Source: a virus
Taxonomy: Duplodnaviria; Caudoviricetes
Direction: 5' to 3' (one strand)
IMG/VR virus record: IMGVR_UViG_3300031555_001562
Length of the DNA stretch: 64,000 bases
Positions 27 through 11,082 of the stretch are shown piece by piece. The position numbers were made by a program, and so were the translations under genes. The stretch's first letter is position 1, and the number at the start of each line of letters is the position of its first letter. The notes under the pieces were generated by a model that had not been told where the DNA came from, ran no database searches, and was given only the letters and a program-made list of their open reading frames with translations.

Positions 27-608
27 TTATAAATATTTTTCGGAGAATTCTCTGTATGATCCAAACTCAGTCTTCCAGCCGGAAGCAATCTGAATGGGAT
101 CCAGATCATGCATCTTACATACATGTGTGATATACTCACTGTCATACAGCTTCTTTCTGCGGCGGTTCACCTTCTTGACTTCCGCAAACACATCCGCACG
201 AGAAACACCGTATTTCTTTTCGAGATACTTCGCCATATCGTTCTGGGAGTACTCAATGAACTGGCAGATAGGGCAGCATGCCTCTGGCATATCATACCTG
301 ACATCATCTATGCCAAAGTATTCATACATGAGATCATCATCGTCCATAGCTTCCAGCTCTTCTTTTGAATGCATTTCGCTGGGATCCAGACCGTCCATGT
401 TTGCCGCATAATACTCAAGAAGTGTATTGATAAAGTTCTCTCTGGGAACCTGAAGCATTTCACTTTCACAAATGGTATGACCATTCACACAGCGAATCAT
501 TTCGGCTTCAGATAGAGACATTTCCCAACCACTCTCTACTGCGCCGCAGATGTCGCAGACAAAGCTTGAGCTACTGGAATTCGTCACAAAGTCTTTTCTG
601 TATTTCAT
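27..608 (-). CDS. N-terminal 'RxDFVTNSSSSS' motif protein 5, Cys-rich (putative Zn-binding)
   Basis: Starts MKYRKDFVTNSSSSSF; contains CDIC, CVNGHTIC and CPIC motifs. Confidence 0.85.
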   Translation of the reverse strand: MKYRKDFVTNSSSSSFVCDICGAVESGWEMSLSEAEMIRCVNGHTICESEMLQVPRENFINTLLEYYAANMDGLDPSEMHSKEELEAMDDDDLMYEYFGIDDVRYDMPEACCPICQFIEYSQNDMAKYLEKKYGVSRADVFAEVKKVNRRRKKLYDSEYITHVCKMHDLDPIQIASGWKTEFGSYREFSEKYL

Positions 609-617
609 TGTATCACC

Positions 618-989
618 TTAATCGCTGGATGATTGATAGATATCTTCCTTGAACTTTCCGGGGATATGCTCATAGAGCCACGCATCATCGCCCTCAGTAT
701 CTCCGTCATTCGTCCATGAAATGAAAGAAGCGGCAAGATACTTTGCGGTGGTATCACTCTCGTCAATGCGATCCAGAACGCTACTTGCAATACAATCCAG
801 GCCAATACACTCATCGAGATAGTCCTTTAATGCCTTTGCGCCCATAAGATACTCATCGAGCAGTCTTACACCATGTTTGCCATGCTCTTCTTTCATATAG
901 TCAAGCAGCTCGTCACAATATGTAATATTCGCCACAACAATGTAGCTGGAACTACTTGAATTTGTTACAAAATCCTGCCTCAGTTTCAT
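618..989 (-). CDS. N-terminal 'RxDFVTNSSSSS' motif protein 4
   Basis: Starts MKLRQDFVTNSSSSSY; 4-nt overlap with the upstream gene. Confidence 0.85.
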   Translation of the reverse strand: MKLRQDFVTNSSSSSYIVVANITYCDELLDYMKEEHGKHGVRLLDEYLMGAKALKDYLDECIGLDCIASSVLDRIDESDTTAKYLAASFISWTNDGDTEGDDAWLYEHIPGKFKEDIYQSSSD

Positions 990-1339
990 CGATATACCTC
1001 GCCATAATCAAAAGTCAATTCATCAGGGCGAAGATCGATATTGTATTCCGTCTTTATGTCTTCTACGACTTTCTTTCTGAGATCAGTCAATGTGTGATCT
1101 TGCAGATCAGATTCATAAATTGGATAACCAACATAATTAACATCAGCGCATTCGCAAATATCAACCACGAGATTTCCCTTTAACGAAATCTGATCGTCAC
1201 CAACTTCATATGCATCACTTAATTTCTCTTTTGTAATGCCGTTTGCCAGCAAAATCAGTTCTTGCGTATTGCTGTCTACCTTTAGGCAAATGAAAGAACT
1301 GCTTCTTGAATTCGTCACATAGTCAGTACGTACTTTCAT
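986..1339 (-). CDS. N-terminal 'RxDYVTNSRSSS' motif protein 3
   Basis: Starts MKVRTDYVTNSRSSSF; 1-nt overlap with the upstream gene. Confidence 0.85.
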   Translation of the reverse strand: MKVRTDYVTNSRSSSFICLKVDSNTQELILLANGITKEKLSDAYEVGDDQISLKGNLVVDICECADVNYVGYPIYESDLQDHTLTDLRKKVVEDIKTEYNIDLRPDELTFDYGEVYR

Positions 1340-1761
1340 TAGCCATTTCTCCCTGCGCCATAATCACACTGGATATCGGCAAAACCGTTTTCTTCAGTGA
1401 TTGCATCAATCACTTGCGTATCGAAGTCACTGTAGTCAACGTAATAATCAACTTCGCCATCTTCATCGCTGTAAAGATCTTCGCAATGCGAATGCATAAC
1501 AAATCTTGCATCCATATGCTCACGAATATAATCTTTACTAGGTGTAATATCTACACCAGCCCAATCGCATTCCAGCCAATTACGCCATCTGCCTTCACCA
1601 TGCTCAATGCTGGCAAGTGCTTCTTCTGCGGTATATACTTCGATTTTTGAAGAAAACTCATTCAATACCTTTGCGGCCTTGGACTCGTCTGCGATTCTGG
1701 CAAAACACACAATATAGCTGCTAGAGCTGCTATTGGTTACATAGTCTGTCCTAATCTTCAT
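1339..1761 (-). CDS. N-terminal 'RxDYVTNSSSSS' motif protein 2
   Basis: Starts MKIRTDYVTNSSSSSY. Confidence 0.85.
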   Translation of the reverse strand: MKIRTDYVTNSSSSSYIVCFARIADESKAAKVLNEFSSKIEVYTAEEALASIEHGEGRWRNWLECDWAGVDITPSKDYIREHMDARFVMHSHCEDLYSDEDGEVDYYVDYSDFDTQVIDAITEENGFADIQCDYGAGRNG

Positions 1762-1763
1762 TA

Positions 1764-2192
1764 TTACGCACCCTCAAGGATCACGAATCCATCGTTATCC
1801 TTTGCCATAGTCTTAATGAAGCTTTCCGGGCTGCAATCGGAATCACTTACACGCTTCCTCATAATAGCATATCCATCTGCAAGATACTTGCTGGCCTCTT
1901 CATACTCTCTGCGGTAATCTTCATCATCTTCGATGATCTCCTGCACGGTATGTTTCTTCCAACCGTATCTGTCGATGAAAAACTTGTCATACTCTTCTTG
2001 CGTAGTGAATACTTCTGCAACCTGAGTATCGCAATAGTCAACCGCATCAATGAGCGCTTCAATAAGTCTCGGATACAAATTGACAAAAGGATACTTTTTC
2101 ACAGTTTCTTCGTCAACCTCTACGTTTGTACGGTAGGCAATCACAAAGCTACTGCTTGAACTGTTGGTTACGAAATCGCTTCTTACTTTCAT
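1764..2192 (-). CDS. N-terminal 'RxDFVTNSSSSS' motif protein 1
   Basis: Starts MKVRSDFVTNSSSSSF. Confidence 0.85.
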   Translation of the reverse strand: MKVRSDFVTNSSSSSFVIAYRTNVEVDEETVKKYPFVNLYPRLIEALIDAVDYCDTQVAEVFTTQEEYDKFFIDRYGWKKHTVQEIIEDDEDYRREYEEASKYLADGYAIMRKRVSDSDCSPESFIKTMAKDNDGFVILEGA

Positions 2193-2201
2193 ATACTTTC
2201 C

Positions 2202-2843
2202 TTAACTTTCATACGGAGACGGTAAACTGTAATCCCAAATTTCATAATCACCACTGTAGTGATTTCTGAAATAGTTTACTTCTCCGTCACCTCTGAACCA
2301 CAAATAATCATCCGGTAAAACCCTTCCAACATCCGTATATCCGGACTTTTCTTTGCTCCACCGGATAAGTACATCTTCTGCCAGATCGTAAAGCTCTTCA
2401 GTTACTGGTGCAGAACTGTTCCATGCAAACTGATTTGGCTTTGTAGCTGCCGCATATATGCTCTTTGAATCGCCAGCATCAACACGATTTACAATTGTCC
2501 ATGCAACACATGCCTGTTGTGTAACGCTCTTAACACCACGACATTCTTCCCAAAGAACTTTCGCAACTACTATTACATCATCTTCAGTAAAGTAATATAC
2601 AATCTCCGGTTCGGTACATTCAGTTTCAACAATCACTTCCAGTTCCGGGGGTTCCGTTTCTGGTTCTGTAGTTTCTACTGGTTCCGTAACACATGTAGTT
2701 TCAGCTATAGTTTCTTCTGTGGGAACAGTCGTAGATTTTGGTGCTGTATATTGCGGATCATATGTATCAATAGCTGCAATACCAATCATCAATAATACAA
2801 TGGCAACGATCAGCATCAGATATATGTTATATTTGTCGCTCAA
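2202..2843 (-). CDS. Membrane-anchored cell wall hydrolase (SleB/Hydrolase_2-like)
   Basis: N-terminal hydrophobic helix, T/E/P-rich linker, then AKVLWEECRG...VAWTIVNRV...PNQF typical of SleB/CwlJ catalytic domains. Confidence 0.75.
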   Translation of the reverse strand: MSDKYNIYLMLIVAIVLLMIGIAAIDTYDPQYTAPKSTTVPTEETIAETTCVTEPVETTEPETEPPELEVIVETECTEPEIVYYFTEDDVIVVAKVLWEECRGVKSVTQQACVAWTIVNRVDAGDSKSIYAAATKPNQFAWNSSAPVTEELYDLAEDVLIRWSKEKSGYTDVGRVLPDDYLWFRGDGEVNYFRNHYSGDYEIWDYSLPSPYES

Positions 2844-3904
2844 ACCAAATCTTTCTCCTGTCTATTGCAGATAACGATGTCTCTACAAATAGGACATCCG
2901 CCAGCACAAGTCGCTCTGGAGGGGCAGGATGCACAAGAATATCTCAGAGAATTTCTGAACTTCTCAAACACTTCTCCATCCCAAGCTTCTTGGATGGTAT
3001 GATTCTTCAGACTGACAAAGTACTTCGGATCCTGATTGCCAAAAGAACATGGCATTGCATTCATACTCGCATCAATGTACATGCTGTGCCTTCCGCCCTC
3101 GCAATAATCCATGCTGTCCAGATTGATCTTACTTGTAAAGTTCACGATACCAGAGCAAGAGCAGCTGTCGAAGCCGATCTTGTGGTGGAACTTACCTGTG
3201 TCAATCAGTTCGAAGAACTCTTTGACTTTGGGATTATCATAAGTCAATATGTTCTCCATCTTGCCCAGGCCAATAGGCTTATACAGCAAGAAAACCACCG
3301 CATTAATACCCATCTTGAAGCTATTTGTTCTCAACTTCTGGATTGCATCATCAATGGTTTTCGCACTCAATACATAGTGAATATTCGTCTTTACACCAGC
3401 ATCCAGAAGCATATCAATTGCTCCATTGGTATAAGGTGCAAAGTGTTCACTCACTGCAATTGCACCACAGTACTTCTTACAGACCTCAGCCTTTTCCTTT
3501 GTCATAGCAATACCAGAGGTTGTAAAGTTAGGAATGATACCATGCTCTCTGGTTGCCTTTAGAATCTCTTCAAAATTTTCATGCGTGTCCACATCCCCCG
3601 CACCGCCCAGGGCGACCTGAAGAACCTTACCTTTGCACTGTTCCATAATACTCAGGTAGTTCTCAAGACTCATATTGGAGCCGGTTCGATCAATGGCTTT
3701 CTGGTAGCAGTCAACGTTGCACTTGTGCGCACATACGCATCGCTCCATAATACCGATATCGATCAGTGAAGGGAAGCATCGCATAAAAGGATCGATACCA
3801 GTATCTTTACCTTCAGCATCGATCACACCGCTGCGAACATAAAATCCTGTATCCGGATTGAAAAGTTCAACAAAACGGTTCTTTTTGTCAATGAATCTAA
3901 TCAC
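2840..3904 (-). CDS. Radical SAM protein with SPASM domain
   Basis: Cys triad CAHKCNVDC (CX3CX3C variant), ALGGAGD motif, C-terminal CEGG...PCSF...CASC...CAGGCP. Confidence 0.9.
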   Translation of the reverse strand: MIRFIDKKNRFVELFNPDTGFYVRSGVIDAEGKDTGIDPFMRCFPSLIDIGIMERCVCAHKCNVDCYQKAIDRTGSNMSLENYLSIMEQCKGKVLQVALGGAGDVDTHENFEEILKATREHGIIPNFTTSGIAMTKEKAEVCKKYCGAIAVSEHFAPYTNGAIDMLLDAGVKTNIHYVLSAKTIDDAIQKLRTNSFKMGINAVVFLLYKPIGLGKMENILTYDNPKVKEFFELIDTGKFHHKIGFDSCSCSGIVNFTSKINLDSMDYCEGGRHSMYIDASMNAMPCSFGNQDPKYFVSLKNHTIQEAWDGEVFEKFRNSLRYSCASCPSRATCAGGCPICRDIVICNRQEKDLV

Positions 3905-3926
3905 TTGTTGTCCTCTTGATTTCTAA

Positions 3927-3974
3927 ACACTATATATTGTGGTTATACCAAACACCAAACACAATATCTAGGTT
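3927..3974. promoter_or_regulatory. Tandem NrdR-box-like operators upstream of the radical SAM gene
   Basis: ACACTATATATTGTGG (3927-3942) and ACACAATATCTAGGTT (3959-3974), starts 32 bp apart; match the NrdR consensus acaCwAtATaTwGtgt and its usual tandem spacing. Confidence 0.7.
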
Positions 3975-3998
3975 GTTTTTGTCGATAAAACTATTATT

Positions 3999-4241
3999 TC
4001 ATTCAGTCTTGCATTTGATGTCGCAATAGGGATCGATCAGGGATACGGGCTTCCTGCATTCTGGAGGGCATGTGCAATTCGGCAGATATGCCCGTGATTC
4101 ACATTCTGAAAAGTCATGATCTCTTCCGCAAAACAAATCACATCTGAAACAATTCCTTTCAACGTATGCCTTCTTGATTGCCTGATTGTTTGGTGTATCA
4201 ATCCGCAATCCTTTATACTTTTTAGGATGCACGTATTCCAT
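3999..4241 (-). CDS. Small Cys-rich hypothetical protein
   Basis: ORF from MEYVHPKK, CFRCDLFC motif; overlaps the 3' end of RT. Confidence 0.55.
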   Translation of the reverse strand: MEYVHPKKYKGLRIDTPNNQAIKKAYVERNCFRCDLFCGRDHDFSECESRAYLPNCTCPPECRKPVSLIDPYCDIKCKTE

Positions 4242-5277
4242 GATCTTCTCCTTCGTTTTCAAAGAGCGAGTCAACAAATTGATCCATGCTGCATATCAAC
4301 TTATAGCAGTTGCCGTGCGACGCATGATTCTTCCACGAACCATACTTTTCGTAGAATTTTTCTTTCGTCATCTTACCGCTCTTTACGAGCTTCGCATTTT
4401 TGCGTAAGCGTTTCTTGATCTGACGTTTGTTATCTCCGGTCAGCTTCCGGATGACCTTGCCATCTTCTGTGATGTATGTATGAAACCCTAAGAATCTAAT
4501 GCCTTTTCTTAGCGGAACAATCTCTGTCTTATCGTTCAAAGTCAGACACAAACCAGCTAAGTACTCTTCAATTTTCTTCAGACAATCTTTTAGATATTCT
4601 TTATCATCAGAAATCAGGTAGAAGTCATCCATGTATCTGCCGTAATACTCGCAGCCAAGATCCTCGGTGATGAAGTAATCAAGTCCGGTCAGATACATCA
4701 GTGCAAACACCTGGCTACTTTGATTGCCGAGCGGCAGACCATCTCCGTCCACACTATCAACAAACAAGTTGCAGATCCATTGAATATCTTCATCCGGGAA
4801 GTACACCCGGATAATTCTCTTCATAATATCGTGATTGATACTGTAAAAGAATTTTGTGATATCGCACTTGAGTATGTATCCTTCGCAGCCATGATTGTCA
4901 TAAAAATCAAGTAGATTTTCTGACAAGCGATCTAGGCCAAATAAGGTTCCTTTGCCTATTTGACCAGCATAGTTGTCGAGAAGAAAGATGTCTTTCATCT
5001 TCGGCAACAATACATAGTCACACAGGCAGTGTTGCAGAACCTTATCTCTAAAAGCGCCAGAAGTAATAAGCCTTTTCTTTGGTTCAGAAATAATAAACTG
5101 AGAATACTTAGATATCTCATATGTGTGTTCAATGAGTTGACGCTTCATCCTGTAAAGGTTTTCTAGCGCCAACACACTGAACTGGATTGCGCTTTTCTTC
5201 TTACCCTTGCCTCGCATTGAGACAGTGTAAGAGGCATACAGATTCTCAAAGTCTATTAGCTTCTGAAAATCTTCCAT
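4222..5277 (-). CDS. DGR reverse transcriptase
   Basis: FRDKVLQH, KCDITKFFYSI, GLPLGNQSSQ, YYGRYMDD and FLGF motifs; adjacent to TR and avd. Confidence 0.95.
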   Translation of the reverse strand: MEDFQKLIDFENLYASYTVSMRGKGKKKSAIQFSVLALENLYRMKRQLIEHTYEISKYSQFIISEPKKRLITSGAFRDKVLQHCLCDYVLLPKMKDIFLLDNYAGQIGKGTLFGLDRLSENLLDFYDNHGCEGYILKCDITKFFYSINHDIMKRIIRVYFPDEDIQWICNLFVDSVDGDGLPLGNQSSQVFALMYLTGLDYFITEDLGCEYYGRYMDDFYLISDDKEYLKDCLKKIEEYLAGLCLTLNDKTEIVPLRKGIRFLGFHTYITEDGKVIRKLTGDNKRQIKKRLRKNAKLVKSGKMTKEKFYEKYGSWKNHASHGNCYKLICSMDQFVDSLFENEGEDHGIRAS

Positions 5278-5392
5278 ATGATCCTTTTGTATTTATCCCA
5301 CCGTTCCCGGTGAGAAAGGTTATACGCTCTTTTGATGATGTGGTGTACTCCTTGTAGTTGCCGGAGCAACTTATAGACCTCGCAAATCCACC

Positions 5393-5474
5393 AGAACGGA
5401 CGGACACCGTTGCTCCAATCACAGTCATTCCAATTCAGAATGCCATTAGAGTTGACGTAGCAAACGTTGCCAGT
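5393..5474 (-). repeat. DGR template repeat (TR)
   Basis: Non-coding, between avd and RT; 82-nt ungapped match to VR1 and 78-nt match to VR2; rich in AAC/AAT codons on the minus strand. Confidence 0.95.
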
Positions 5475-5498
5475 TTCAGCGCATAACCTAAAGGCTTA

Positions 5499-5867
5499 TT
5501 AGGTCTTCTTCCGCCACGCAAGCGTCATATGTTTTATGTCGTATGCGAGGCCAGTCCATTGTTCGCTCATAGCGGCGCTTATTAACTTGGCATGCAAGCT
5601 GTATCTCACCAGGCTCAAGAATTTATTGCATTCCGTTATTGCTAAGGTTTGCTTTTCTATTCTTTTGGCTCTGTGTCCCTCTGAATCAGGAACATAGGAA
5701 TTTGCGTCCAGCAAATACCCATATATGTTCAAAGAGATCTCCTGAAGTTTATCTGTAATCCGCCGATACCTTACTGGATAGTGTTGGCGAATAGTAGTAA
5801 TATCAAAGACTGAAAAATACAGCTGCTCTGCCTTATTGCCTATTTCAAATCTTACTTCTTCACTCAT
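5499..5867 (-). CDS. avd: DGR accessory variability determinant (Avd, four-helix bundle)
   Basis: 122 aa helical protein between target and TR; HYPVRYR...IYGYLLDAN...AWRK pattern. Confidence 0.85.
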   Translation of the reverse strand: MSEEVRFEIGNKAEQLYFSVFDITTIRQHYPVRYRRITDKLQEISLNIYGYLLDANSYVPDSEGHRAKRIEKQTLAITECNKFLSLVRYSLHAKLISAAMSEQWTGLAYDIKHMTLAWRKKT

Positions 5868-5875
5868 TTGTTATC

Positions 5876-6333
5876 TCACTCTACCAAGAGGGAAGAGTCG
5901 AGGATCAAGAACGGACGGACACCGTTGCCCCAACCACAGACATTCCAAAGCAGAATGCCATCAGAGCTGACGTAGCAAACGCTGCCAGTATAACCAGATA
6001 CCTCAGCGGTGACTCTGGTTGCAGTCCACCATGCTTCGCCCATTGCCTTCAGGAACTTCCGGTAACGGCGATACCGATCAGTAGTCAGAATGGACACGAA
6101 ACCCTCAACGGTCTTGATACCAGTGCCATCGTCTGCGGTCAGATCGACGGTATGACGGATGATATTCTCAGCACCCACCGACTTGACCATCTCGTTGTAG
6201 AAGTCATTGATACAGTAGCTGCGAACATCGCTGGTCTCATAGTCGCCGGTGGAACCATATTCCATACGCTTAACGAAATCCTTGGCAATTACTGCGGTTC
6301 CATGTTCGGTGTGTTCCAGGACAATGAACTCAC
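5876..6333 (-). pseudogene. DGR target 1, 3' portion (5' portion lies inverted at 6629-6780 on +)
   Basis: EFIVLEH...WWTAT...GVRP, paralogous to 27463-28101; the N-terminus of track ORF 5876..6499 is not real. Confidence 0.85.
5908..5989 (-). repeat. DGR variable repeat VR1
   Basis: 8 mismatches to TR in 82 nt, all at TR adenines (coding strand). Confidence 0.95.
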
Positions 6334-6528
6334 CTGCTGAAGGCAAAAGATAAGGCAATCGAACTGGGTCTGATCGAGGGCGAACAGTTTGGCCTGATCT
6401 ATGATAACTGCATGACAGAGCTTGTTCCGGAAGAAGAAAATGGAACGACTCTGACTGGAATCTGGTTCTGTCCTTTACCTGATGAGGTTGCACACACAAT
6501 TAGTAAAAAATATCAGCTATATCGTTAA
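6331..6528 (+). pseudogene. Peptidyl-tRNA hydrolase Pth2, displaced 3' portion
   Basis: Reads HLLKAKDKAIELGL...IYDNCMTEL...TLTGIWFCPLPDEVAHTISKKYQLYR*, resembling the C-terminal half of Pth2. Confidence 0.85.
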
Positions 6529-7021: not shown

Positions 7022-7249
7022 TTATATGACTCCTTTTCCTTTTAGCCATTCCGCAGCGTCAAGCAGAATTGCAACTACGAACCATAGTCCAAGGCAGATT
7101 CCAAGGTCTGCCCATCCACTATGATCCCATCCAAGGATTGCGACAACACCATCAAGTAAATATCCTATAGAGACTGCGAATAAGACGCCAATTCCTGCGC
7201 ACAACAGAAGGTTAATTGCAGTTCTCAAAAACTTGATTACATGTTTCAT
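7022..7249 (-). CDS. Small membrane protein
   Basis: Two hydrophobic segments; in operon. Confidence 0.65.
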   Translation of the reverse strand: MKHVIKFLRTAINLLLCAGIGVLFAVSIGYLLDGVVAILGWDHSGWADLGICLGLWFVVAILLDAAEWLKGKGVI

Positions 7250-8088
7250 GGCTCACCAACAAAAACCAGATCCTCGACATACTTTCTCCCGTCTCCCTTG
7301 AAGATAGGAATCTTTTTATCGATAATCCATTTAGGACGTTTATCTTCGTCTCCCTGAACCTTTATGCAACAGCTGCCACGCTTTTGATGTACAGGGAAAT
7401 CGTTCCAGTTGATACCCTTTTCCAGCATAAGCATGTCTTGCATCTGGCTCTGGGACTTGTTTTGTAACATTCCATGTGAGAAATGCGCCTGAGCTACCAT
7501 TTCCACGGAATTTCTGGTTGCATCATTCTGCCGCCACAAAACACAGTTGCAGACTTCTTCCTTTGGAATGTTGAACACACGTGCATCGAACAGAGCGCCC
7601 TTCTCAGCCGCCTTCTTGTATGCCTCGTAGTATTTGCCATTGTCCTCTTCTGAGAATGTAATATGATATCCAATCTCAGTAAGATCAATGTCAGTATTGA
7701 ACTCATAGAAAGCATTCAGATTTGCAACAAAGAATCTGTTGAACGCAAATGTAGCCATCGACGCAGCAATACTGCACATCTTCTGGATGTTGTTATCAAA
7801 CCATGCGCAGCTGTTGAGTTTCTTGTAATCCACCAGAACAAGTGTGATTTCGTCGGACTGTGTATAGCCCAAAACGCAACCTTGAATATTTTCGCATAGA
7901 TACTTCGTGGTATCCTGCATGGTGGAGATCAGCACTTCATCAAAAGGTCTTTTGAAACCTCTTGTGAAAGTGTGGAATGCCTTACCATCCAGCCGGATGA
8001 TTACTGGCATTCTGGGTACGAGATATGTACGGGTGATATACTCGTACTTTTTCATGCGATCACCCAGCGCATCTCTTTTCTTTGCCAT
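7246..8088 (-). CDS. tRNA(His) guanylyltransferase Thg1-like protein
   Basis: RLDGKAFHTFT, YTQSDEI, FDAR and WRQNDATRNS motifs. Confidence 0.93.
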   Translation of the reverse strand: MAKKRDALGDRMKKYEYITRTYLVPRMPVIIRLDGKAFHTFTRGFKRPFDEVLISTMQDTTKYLCENIQGCVLGYTQSDEITLVLVDYKKLNSCAWFDNNIQKMCSIAASMATFAFNRFFVANLNAFYEFNTDIDLTEIGYHITFSEEDNGKYYEAYKKAAEKGALFDARVFNIPKEEVCNCVLWRQNDATRNSVEMVAQAHFSHGMLQNKSQSQMQDMLMLEKGINWNDFPVHQKRGSCCIKVQGDEDKRPKWIIDKKIPIFKGDGRKYVEDLVFVGEP

Positions 8089-8097
8089 ATATGCTCC

Positions 8098-8385
8098 TTA
8101 CGTTGTAAAGAATTCATCGACTATCGTCAGGTTCGCATTGACATCTAGAACCATATCCTTGACATAATCATTTTTGCATCTGCCCCTGTCCATCCTGAAA
8201 CAAAGAGGATTTGGTTCTGTTTCATCAACATAGTATTCTCTTCCGCAGTGATTGCATGTTTCTTTGGAATACCTATCGTCGGGAAGCTCTTTGAACTTAT
8301 AGAAATGTTGCCATGTCAAATTATATCTATTTTCATGTCCGCAGTTTGGACATCTCCAATAGCTAAAAACATCAACCCAACTCAT
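8098..8385 (-). CDS. Small Zn-ribbon protein
   Basis: CPNCG and CNHCG. Confidence 0.6.
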   Translation of the reverse strand: MSWVDVFSYWRCPNCGHENRYNLTWQHFYKFKELPDDRYSKETCNHCGREYYVDETEPNPLCFRMDRGRCKNDYVKDMVLDVNANLTIVDEFFTT

Positions 8386-9149
8386 GTTTCAGCGGAATAA
8401 GGGAAAGATGGCATAAGCTCAAGCTTGAACTTGTTCTTCTCATGCATGCGGTCAATCTTTTCTTTTACAACTTCATCCTCGCATACGCCAGTACGAATGT
8501 ATTTATTCAGAACGGCATATGTAAAGCCAAAATTGTCTTCGTCAGTCTTACCACACAGACCATCAGCAGGAACCTTGTAGGCCAGATCATAAGGAAGACC
8601 ACATTCCACACCGATTGCCATAACCTCATCTGTGGTCAAATTTGACAGAGGGCTAAAATCACCGACACTATCACCATAACGAGTGGAATAGCCGATCCAA
8701 TCTTCTGACAGATTGCAAGTGTTGGCAACTCGTCCATTGCATGACTGAGATACAGCATAGAGCGTAACCATACGCAGACGTGCAGGAAGATTGATTCTGG
8801 TCTGCTCAGAAATATCGAACTTCATGTTCTGCGGATTCTTGCGATTATCGCAGATCCCACGATAAATACCATGTTCTGCATCATGGATATTGATCCACAC
8901 TCGCTTGATTCCAAGATGATCCACTACCGCAAGAGAATCATCGATATCTGCTTGTTCACCGTTGGGCATCAGAACTCCGATAACACGATCTTTACCCAGT
9001 GCTTCCACACACAGAGCAGCCACAACAGAGCTGTCCTTGCCACCGGAGATGCCGACGATAGCATTACATCCGTTACCGTTTTTCTCGAACCACTCACGGA
9101 TCCACTCAACGCACGCTTCCTTTACTTTCTTCACATCGAACTTGTACAT
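8382..9149 (-). CDS. nadE: NH3-dependent NAD+ synthetase
   Basis: GISGGKDS, ARLRM, GYSTRYGD and PADGL motifs; no glutaminase domain. Confidence 0.93.
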   Translation of the reverse strand: MYKFDVKKVKEACVEWIREWFEKNGNGCNAIVGISGGKDSSVVAALCVEALGKDRVIGVLMPNGEQADIDDSLAVVDHLGIKRVWINIHDAEHGIYRGICDNRKNPQNMKFDISEQTRINLPARLRMVTLYAVSQSCNGRVANTCNLSEDWIGYSTRYGDSVGDFSPLSNLTTDEVMAIGVECGLPYDLAYKVPADGLCGKTDEDNFGFTYAVLNKYIRTGVCEDEVVKEKIDRMHEKNKFKLELMPSFPYSAET

Positions 9150-9556
9150 AATTCAGATCTCACTCTCATTAGAATTCTGCCGAGTCTATTTTCACCAACT
9201 CCATGCACAGCGCCCCAAATACGGTCTCCCCAGGTATTACCCTCGACAAGAATCTCATCGCCTGTTGCCAGAAGCTTTGCTCGAAGATCAGGGTTTTGCT
9301 CGAACTTCGCCTTGCAAATTTCGTACATAACCTGGTCTTTGATCTGCTCCCAGTCTTCACGCAGCTGAACTTGTCTACCGAGTTTCTTTGCGTCAGATGG
9401 ATTCAGCTGGTGGAATTTCATGCGAATGAACTTATTGGTGGTCTTCTGTGCCTGAAATGCTGCTTCGTTATTTCTATAGGTGATGCCACCGTAAGTGACA
9501 TCACTCTCATAGAAATTACTCAGAAAGTAGAATTCGCCTTTGAACTCTCCAATCAT
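9131..9556 (-). CDS. NADAR family protein
   Basis: FLSNFY, EAAFQAQK, KFEQN, LVEGN, WG and NRLG motifs. Confidence 0.92.
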   Translation of the reverse strand: MIGEFKGEFYFLSNFYESDVTYGGITYRNNEAAFQAQKTTNKFIRMKFHQLNPSDAKKLGRQVQLREDWEQIKDQVMYEICKAKFEQNPDLRAKLLATGDEILVEGNTWGDRIWGAVHGVGENRLGRILMRVRSELCTSSM

Positions 9557-11082
9557 CAGAATTTGCCTCCATTCAGGTTTGCACGGACTTCCTGCAAGGT
9601 GTATTCCTTTACCATCTTGCCGTCCTTGAAAACAGTCTTCAGCTGGTTATCAGGATCATTGACTGCCTGTTCCCAGGTATAACCGTCCTCAAATACGTAT
9701 TCGCCATTGTTATCCAGATGGACAACACAGCATCCCTTCTGGGACTTCTTGAAGCCACCATCCTTGGGATTTTTGAAAATCGGATGGGGATCGCCGTTGA
9801 TCTCGCAGTAGGTAGCCTTGATGCAGAAGCTGAAGGTATCTCTGGTAAAAGGCTTCAACAGCTTGACCTTTCCAGTAACTTTGGTTCCGTCTTCCAAGGT
9901 AACAGTAACGTCATCAACTTCCTCAATGCACTGCATGGAGAAAGAACCAACACCCAGAGCAACATTGGAACATGCAAAGCCATTCTCCATCAGAATCTGA
10001 TAGATCTCTTCGCAACGCTGAACGGTGATGCTATCACCATAGATTGCCTTAACATGGGGATCCAACACCTTGTAGCCCTTGGAATTGATAGTGCCGCCAA
10101 ACTGATCCCAAAGCTTGAAAACAGTCTTAGTAACAACTTCAACACAATCACCGGAGTCGCCACGCATGAGCATACAACCGTTATGGTTCATGATTTCTTC
10201 CTTGGTCTGGGGCAGAACATTGTCAATAATGTTCCAATAGTCATAGGAATCCAGAACGGCAGAGAAACTTGTGTTGGGATAGATTTCGGTCAACAGACGC
10301 TTCAGAAGCGTAACCTCATCGCCGTCAACCGCATAGTTGGAACACATGACGGAATGTTCGGTACTGGGGCTACCAAATGCAACCGGCTCTTTGGTGCAGT
10401 CACAGTTATACATTTCCTCCAGATAGGGAATTGTTGGTACGGTTGCGGTATTCAGGAAAGACAGACACCATGCAGCGCCAGCCTTAGTTGCAGAATCCAG
10501 GCATTCCTCGCCACGGAAGTCAAATGCGCCCAAAGCTCTTGCACGAGGCACATTATCATCACAGGTCAGATCATAATACTTGTTTACGATCTGGCGGTAA
10601 GTATGGCCTACGGTTGCAACGATCATGGGATGCCAAATTTCAGCAGACAGTAGACTCTCAAGAGCCTGGGGAAGCCACGCAAAGTCCGGATGGGTATTGG
10701 TAATACCGAACATGGGAACATGCATGGGAACCATAGTGCCTTCAGGAAGTGCAACGATTTCGATGGGCAGATATCCCAGCTTGTGCAGCTTAGAAATCTT
10801 TTCAATTCCATACACATTCTTGCCCAGAGCGGCATCCATGACTCTGGTATAGCTTTCGATAACTTCATCGTGGGACTTCTCGAAGAACTCGGTGTTGAAG
10901 TAGTCGATCAGATAGGTTTTACAAAATGCCTGGAGGATGAACATGACCATCTTATCCCAGCGGTTAACTCTGCCCATTCTGGGAGTTGCATAGGACATGG
11001 ATTTAGTCATATTCTTTGGGAGCATTTCTGCATGAACGCCCTTGTAAAAGTCGATCAGCAGATTGGGATTAGTTCGCATCAT
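9556..11082 (-). CDS. NAMPT-fold nicotinamide/nicotinate phosphoribosyl (or ADP-ribosyl) transferase
   Basis: DFYK..H, FDFRG, STEHSVM, VLDSYD, RGDSGD, IYGDSIT, TRDT and KKSQKG motifs. Confidence 0.9.
   Translation of the reverse strand: MMRTNPNLLIDFYKGVHAEMLPKNMTKSMSYATPRMGRVNRWDKMVMFILQAFCKTYLIDYFNTEFFEKSHDEVIESYTRVMDAALGKNVYGIEKISKLHKLGYLPIEIVALPEGTMVPMHVPMFGITNTHPDFAWLPQALESLLSAEIWHPMIVATVGHTYRQIVNKYYDLTCDDNVPRARALGAFDFRGEECLDSATKAGAAWCLSFLNTATVPTIPYLEEMYNCDCTKEPVAFGSPSTEHSVMCSNYAVDGDEVTLLKRLLTEIYPNTSFSAVLDSYDYWNIIDNVLPQTKEEIMNHNGCMLMRGDSGDCVEVVTKTVFKLWDQFGGTINSKGYKVLDPHVKAIYGDSITVQRCEEIYQILMENGFACSNVALGVGSFSMQCIEEVDDVTVTLEDGTKVTGKVKLLKPFTRDTFSFCIKATYCEINGDPHPIFKNPKDGGFKKSQKGCCVVHLDNNGEYVFEDGYTWEQAVNDPDNQLKTVFKDGKMVKEYTLQEVRANLNGGKF

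Follow-up and report, generated by a model that had tools for sequence, protein, structure and literature searches.

The 48-bp element immediately upstream of a radical SAM/SPASM (rSAM) operon in a large phage is well supported, on the strength of its box sequences, spacing and placement, as an NrdR-type operator positioned to control this operon. We propose that it probably functions as a promoter switch gated by the NrdR of the host and tied to dNTP status or replication, a reading in which binding, repression and timing are inferred from the DNA. Its boxes recur before unrelated genes in related phages and are missing from most homologous operons, and they are therefore discussed below as part of a promoter and not as a mark of gene function.

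The window analysed here, 64,000 nucleotides in length, corresponds to bases 35911-99910, read on the reverse strand, of a 163,674-bp IMG/VR virus record rated 100% complete by CheckV. Its source looks like a large phage of gut or rumen, possibly a virulent one and not a lysogen awaiting induction.

A tandem NrdR-type operator upstream of the rSAM operon

The element comprises two 16-mers whose starts are 32 bp apart and which are separated by a 16-bp linker, with 22 bp between the end of box 2 and the GTG of the rSAM gene (Table 1). This arrangement just before the rSAM start had been described in an initial annotation, and our inspection bears it out. The same annotation reported a match to the NrdR consensus at 15 of 16 positions for one of the boxes, which is correct for the proximal box, the distal one departing at three positions from the consensus used here, ACACWATATATWGTGT (acaCwAtATaTwGtgt). 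Six positions of NrdR boxes are highly conserved, namely C4, A6, A8, T9, T11 and G13, of which C4 and G13 are critical (PMC13584703); all six are kept in both box 1 and box 2. A linker of 16 bp was optimal for the four NrdR proteins tested, and NrdR linkers in general have an optimum at 15-16 bp, with 14-17 bp tolerated and a second optimum at 24-27 bp (PMC12051234), while their sequence is unconserved in true sites (PMC13584703).

The pair is located within the 94-bp gap that separates the stop of a Cys-rich ORF (3999) from the rSAM GTG (3904). All genes near it are on the minus strand of the window, and a role of the boxes for a divergent gene is thus ruled out.

Table 1 Operator, cassette elements and neighbouring genes. 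Positions refer to the window unless marked as genome positions.
Feature	Sequence	Position	Strand	Remarks
NrdR box 1 (distal)	AACCTAGATATTGTGT	3974..3959	minus	3 mismatches to consensus, 13/16
Linker, 16 bp		3958..3943	minus	between box 1 and box 2
NrdR box 2 (proximal)	CCACAATATATAGTGT	3942..3927	minus	1 mismatch to consensus, 15/16
-35-like TYGACA motif after T-run (putative)	TTTTATCGACA	3980..3990	minus	5 bp upstream of box 1
AT-rich inverted repeat	ATGAAA-N6-TTTTAT	3985..4002	minus	left arm overlaps stop codon of upstream ORF
Cys-rich ORF, 80 aa		3999..4241	minus	between DGR reverse transcriptase and operator; outside the NrdR-controlled unit
Ribosome-binding site of rSAM gene	AGAGGA	3911..3916	minus	6 nt before GTG at 3904
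Radical SAM/SPASM gene, 354 aa		2840..3904	minus	first in operon; GTG start
213-aa protein gene		2202..2843	minus	weak cell-wall-hydrolase (Hydrolase_2) match; overlaps rSAM stop codon
Five tandem motif genes (142, 140, 117, 123 and 193 aa)		27..2192	minus	
Second box pair, 16-bp linker	CTACTACATGTTGTGT + AAACTATATATTGTAT	genome 12780-12827		outside window; 72 bp upstream of 2570-aa protein

Since the DNA at the site is AT-rich and intergenic, we considered whether the boxes could be chance palindromes without function. Single boxes with up to 3 mismatches are seen four times in the whole window against 1.09 expected. The strict pair pattern, defined by the six conserved positions in each box and a linker of 15-16 bp, occurs twice in the 163,674-bp genome, for which single-box counts give an expectation of 0.011; in first-order Markov genomes (n = 100) the mean was 0.03 strict pairs, three genomes having one pair and none having two. 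An expectation of 0.01-0.03 pairs per genome, the counts across relatives (31 vs 1 in the control), the sharp peak in their spacing and the NrdR-like bases at unconstrained positions, the last three documented below, leave chance as scarcely credible. An exact IMG/VR search with both boxes and a free linker gave no other contig, so that there was no close relative for a footprint.

The operator is embedded in a putative promoter cassette

At many sites of the related phages, the boxes belong to a common cassette which, when oriented by the downstream genes, reads AATRAAA-N6-TTTYAT-YGACA-N5/6-box 1-linker-box 2. The TYGACA motif is found 5-6 bp before box 1 in many of these cassettes, and the TTTT form of the -35-like motif is present at only five places in the phage genome, two of which are the box pairs. 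The linker cannot be aligned among cassettes. The inverted repeat, in contrast to it, takes the form AATRAAA-N6-TTTYATT in 21 aligned cassettes, in which 89% of cells pair; AU/GC/GU exchanges are found at two of the pairs, and changes on both sides occur in 8 cells vs 3.7 after shuffling, with 8 attained in 4 of 500 shuffles. These exchanges lend modest support to pairing or to a symmetric protein site.

An extended -10-like sequence, TGgTATAAC, is located at 3950..3942 and covers part of the linker and the first base of box 2. We take it as the putative -10, both this and the -35 having been assigned by eye. A sigma-70 promoter scan returned no canonical -35/-10 pair at the rSAM site or at the second pair, and no more than 15-16 bp separate the TTGACA-like motif from a TAnnnT hexamer in box 1. 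Several cassettes have box 2 just 4-38 bp ahead of the start codon, and there transcription must begin within or before this box. The strict full-cassette pattern was found in only five further IMG/VR contigs, of which two were known already, and the exact cassette is therefore limited to a small group.

A diversity-generating retroelement (DGR) is situated just upstream (window 4222-6499, minus strand). It encodes a reverse transcriptase (RVT_1, LGNQSSQ-type motif), a DUF6273 target protein of 207 aa and an Avd-like ORF of 122 aa. In two other loci (L016 and L024) the rSAM gene comes directly after a homologous reverse transcriptase, so that DGR and rSAM operon are found side by side repeatedly. 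Because no ORF or cassette intervenes there, the Cys-rich ORF and the cassette were apparently inserted in the lineage of this phage only; relatives of the ORF were sought and none was found. Further upstream, window 7246-11082 holds an auxiliary metabolic block of Thg1-like tRNA-His guanylyltransferase, NAD synthase and NAMPT/NAPRTase-family genes.

Box pairs recur across related phages before unrelated genes

We searched 38 phage records that carry the same rSAM gene (~4.0 Mb), using the same pattern read backwards as a control. The strict pattern gave 31 pairs vs 1 for the backwards control, at ~7.8 per Mb, with at least one pair in 17 records; several of the records are closely related, so the 31 sites represent perhaps 22-25 independent ones. 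When the linker was freed to 1-31 bp, 50 pairs were obtained, with linkers of 14 bp (6 pairs), 15 bp (16), 16 bp (15), 17 bp (3), 25 bp (3), 26 bp (2) and other lengths (5). Linkers of 14-17 bp thus make up 40 of the 50 pairs and those of 25-26 bp another five, which fits the NrdR binding windows (PMC12051234). Positions that the pattern does not require are still NrdR-like: A3 in 73%, W5 in 92%, T7 in 88%, A10 in 78%, W12 in 97% and T14 in 78%.

About 24 of the 31 sites fall between genes, as a rule 4-170 bp ahead of a co-directional gene. The genes behind them are mutually unrelated and include a DNA methyltransferase with a helicase, phrog_6452, an isochorismatase-family gene, phrog_2367 and many small ORFs, the rSAM operon being the only recurring target. 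With the same cassette before unrelated genes, the association is therefore with promoters and not with one function.

Five Bacillota genomes from clades with an rSAM homologue, which are candidate host clades, contain 0.62 pairs per Mb, ~12 times fewer than the phages, and all five encode NrdR. As a positive control, the pattern is found directly upstream of nrdD or of a class I/II reductase gene in Dorea, Lacrimispora, a Lachnospiraceae and Proteiniclasticum. The Lachnospiraceae isolate genome G042 has seven strict pairs, several of which are of the phage type (with CTATATATAG cores and three boxes in a row) and stand away from nrdD, at C31:40388-40459, C58:4348 and C50:1521; these may be prophage-borne.

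The second pair of the phage itself lies between a lysis-like module and a 2570-aa fibre-like gene (region genome 4995-12827, L278:196-8028), whose product resembles the DGR target in having a DUF6273 domain, at its C-terminus. Between this pair and the 2570-aa gene stands a terminator-like hairpin, so a cassette need not be a simple promoter of the gene that follows it. The 216-aa gene upstream of the second pair has distant relatives, which are found in other contexts and without boxes.

A wider IMG/VR sample was screened with a stricter 16-base pattern and a 16-bp linker, and more than 117 stretches matched; by a rough estimate, chance matches could equal the order of this number, and the sample serves as a lead only. 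Of 80 sites, 68 are outside large ORFs, and many look like good boxes. The Pfam tally for 112 first or second downstream proteins includes portal protein, terminase small and large subunits, lysozyme and HTH proteins, with no reductase family among the 25 families listed. One contig (IMGVR_UViG_3300010338_001427, L205:4520-5200) has more than 20 NrdR-box-like 16-mers of the TACAATATATAGT type within ~700 bp, like an iteron array, which could be a repressor sponge or a set of phage initiator sites. The array indicates that box-like palindromes may serve purposes besides that of an operator. In addition, a near-perfect 48-bp palindrome, ATACCATATATAGTAT and ATACTATATATGGTAT with 16 bp between them, is shared by at least eight IMG/VR contigs, the majority >100 kb (L173, L176, L177, L182, L192, L218, L219 and L221).

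The downstream operon and its homologues

The first gene of the operon encodes a protein assigned to phrog_7293, with a SPASM domain above the cut-off (PF13186, 1.1e-6), a PF04055 match below the cut-off (2.8e-5) and partial matches to PqqE, a tungsten-cofactor maturase and a sactipeptide maturase. Its cluster region reads CxCx3Cx3C and not the canonical CxxxCxxC, and C56, C58, C62 and C66 are invariant in five homologues. The product of the second gene matches phrog_30550 (3.5e-37), with a PF07486 match below the cut-off (0.0044). The five motif proteins that follow have only an N-terminal MKxRxD(F/Y)VTNS(S/R)SSS in common, and an Atlas look-up of one of them returned unnamed viral clusters only. 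An rSAM core and a SPASM domain, adjoined by genes for short proteins with a common motif, would be consistent with an rSAM/SPASM maturase.

The operon ends with the fifth motif protein and is followed by an ABC-permease-like gene and then by genes on the opposite strand. The permease-like protein, of 238 aa (BPD_transp_1, 7e-17), is encoded just past the left edge of the window at genome 100362-101078 (L005:10363-11079). The earlier observation that no nrd gene lies downstream holds, also past this edge, and the genes found there rule out an nrd gene beyond it as the real target.

Homologues of the rSAM protein with 43-75% identity were collected from 41 viral loci and from contigs of bacterial genomes (65 loci). 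In 31 of 36 viral loci the rSAM gene is followed by motif genes, and the operon is therefore a conserved module. The boxes do not belong to this module: only 4 of 38 viral records, from three lineages, have them ahead of the homologous operon, and none of the 65 bacterial loci has a box pair (0 in 607 kb). The initial annotation had named such a lack of conservation as a ground for refuting its functional inference, which on this test largely fails. Only one other phage (G017) has boxes directly before the rSAM gene, five of them at -149 to -37; G008 and G009 have theirs ahead of a gene for a 137-aa protein just upstream of it, and in most relatives there is no intergenic gap before the rSAM gene. 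NrdR control is therefore not essential to the operon.

Reductase genes and NrdR in the phage

The complete phage genome, far from lacking nrd genes as had been considered, encodes both nrdD and nrdG, at genome 159.8-163.0 kb and ~60 kb from the operon. NrdD has 733 aa and matches PF13597 and the ATP-cone; NrdG, encoded two genes past it, is a classical 191-aa protein with CxxxCxxC. No class I/II reductase large subunit was found in the phage genome. The two genes are part of a nucleotide-metabolism cluster at the right end (genome 157.7-163.4 kb, L279:2742-8424), beside a 144-aa ORF and a dUTPase-like protein; by eye, the translations from this cluster also include ThyX-like, P-loop kinase-like and deoxyribosyltransferase-like proteins. 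There is no box pair at nrdDG or elsewhere in the cluster. NrdD is present in 23 of 34 relatives, and no phage nrdD has a pair upstream.

The initial annotation had read the boxes as a sign that the rSAM and motif proteins supply deoxynucleotides or modify nucleotides, and had speculated that they form a non-classical reductase and its activase. Bacterial NrdR is indeed described as specific for reductase genes, and the rSAM operon is the sole recurring target of the pairs, in the four records and three lineages given above. Against this stand the classical nrdD and nrdG elsewhere in the genome, the SPASM domain with its partial matches to peptide or protein maturases, the motif proteins, which share only a Ser-rich N-terminus and in whose translations no glycyl-radical RVxG-type C-terminal motif was detected by eye, and the boxes themselves, which most homologous operons lack and which occur at unrelated genes. 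The rSAM protein, with 354 aa, a SPASM domain and a CxCx3Cx3C region, is not a glycyl-radical activase. A role in nucleotide supply or modification is thus not supported, and we regard it as very improbable. What stands of the proposed link to dNTP status is the NrdR-type operator on the rSAM operon; a functional role of the operon in nucleotide metabolism does not.

No NrdR was matched by TIGR00244 in the phage genome, nor in 34 relatives, where the only matches were the ATP-cones of NrdD. A home-made profile of the NrdR zinc ribbon picked out a single ORF, weakly (E 0.002, 15 bits); it is located at genome 29135-29461 and codes for a zinc-ribbon protein of 98 aa with the pattern CPYC...CNNC. 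The palindromes might accordingly be read by a DNA-binding protein of the phage, either this zinc-ribbon protein or a factor for the adjacent inverted repeat, whose conservation and covariation in the cassette would suit such a reader. The 98-aa ORF, on the other hand, shows neither VxDSR nor RRRR, which are signatures of NrdR; the phages of the set contain no NrdR that exceeds the family cut-off; and a two-box layout with linker lengths of 14-17 and 25-26 bp is characteristic of the ATP-cone-mediated NrdR tetramer. We consider a phage-encoded reader improbable and retain the host NrdR as the likely ligand.

Proposed mechanism

Based on the above data, we propose the following scheme for the phage element. 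NrdR of the host would bind the promoter cassette, the phage being without an NrdR of its own; NrdR proteins of different phyla bind heterologous box pairs in vitro (PMC13584703). Bound NrdR would cover the -10, the transcription start and the 5'-UTR and keep the operon off while dATP is plentiful. As phage replication drains dATP, or as replicating genomes come to exceed the repressor in number, NrdR would be released and transcription of the operon would begin. When phage SpSL1 infects S. pneumoniae lytically, host transcripts with NrdR sites ahead of them are strongly induced (PMC6755750); the host NrdR regulon is derepressed in this infection, and the proposed signal therefore exists during infection. 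The element would in this way probably time the rSAM operon to precursor supply. The switch would have been borrowed by a group of large Bacillota phages for many unrelated operons and never for their own nrdD.

The rise of the host NrdR regulon in lytic infection (PMC6755750) would also be expected if the pairs acted as decoys that soak up host NrdR, derepress the host reductase genes and raise dNTP supply, control of the neighbouring gene being secondary. Two sites per genome, multiplied by genome copy number, could contribute to such a sponge; the phage nrdDG is without boxes, and another phage (L205) has its array of >20 box-like repeats in 700 bp. The number of sites per genome is nevertheless small, and their exact placement, with a -35-like motif before them and a start codon a few bases after, is better explained by a promoter than by a passive sink. 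We therefore judge a sponge as the primary role to be unlikely, although it is the strongest of the competing readings and the two roles do not exclude each other.

Discussion

NrdR operators have been located at the RNR promoters of bacteria, such as nrdAB, nrdHIEF and nrdDG in E. coli, nrdRJ and nrdAB in S. coelicolor and nrdDG in L. monocytogenes (PMC9110341, PMC12051234, PMC13584703). Like these, the phage element has two partially palindromic 16-bp boxes with six conserved positions and a 15-16 bp linker of unconserved sequence, and it would lie over or beside the transcription start. Unlike them, it belongs to a genome without NrdR, the gene behind the boxes starts an rSAM/SPASM operon and does not encode a reductase, the phage's own nrdDG lacks boxes, and the operator is set in a phage-specific cassette with an inverted repeat and a TTGACA-like motif. 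NrdR is described as RNR-specific in the literature, and full-text literature searches gave no description of NrdR boxes at non-reductase genes of phages. What appears to be new here is the probable co-option on phage promoters of an operator known from RNR promoters.

Host repressors co-opted by phages are familiar from the LexA boxes on the promoters of temperate phages and prophages. There too, a phage promoter carries the operator of a global sensor of the host and expression follows a physiological signal of the host; in the present case, the signal would be the dATP/ATP balance read through NrdR and not DNA damage. A second parallel is the replication-coupled late transcription of T4, whose late promoters are activated through the sliding clamp. 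Both arrangements tie some genes to ongoing phage DNA replication, but the coupling proposed here would be indirect, with precursor depletion sensed by a host repressor, and would need no phage factor.

The boxes would tell when the rSAM operon is expressed and not what the operon does, and they give no evidence for an action on nucleotides. A more general caution follows for annotation: NrdR boxes on phage DNA are not grounds for inferring a nucleotide-related function.

For the phage group as a whole, we give about even chances to the broader proposal that phages of gut and rumen Bacillota have turned NrdR into a general sensor of precursors or replication, by means of a portable cassette that is placed before non-reductase operons while their own nrdDG is spared. 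NrdR-gated middle or late expression could be a widespread phage strategy, and the IMG/VR sample hints at packaging and lysis genes among its targets. If this is true, NrdR would also be a channel through which phages read the precursor pool of the host, and it would let them hold back some genes until replication has got going, simply and with no additional factor.
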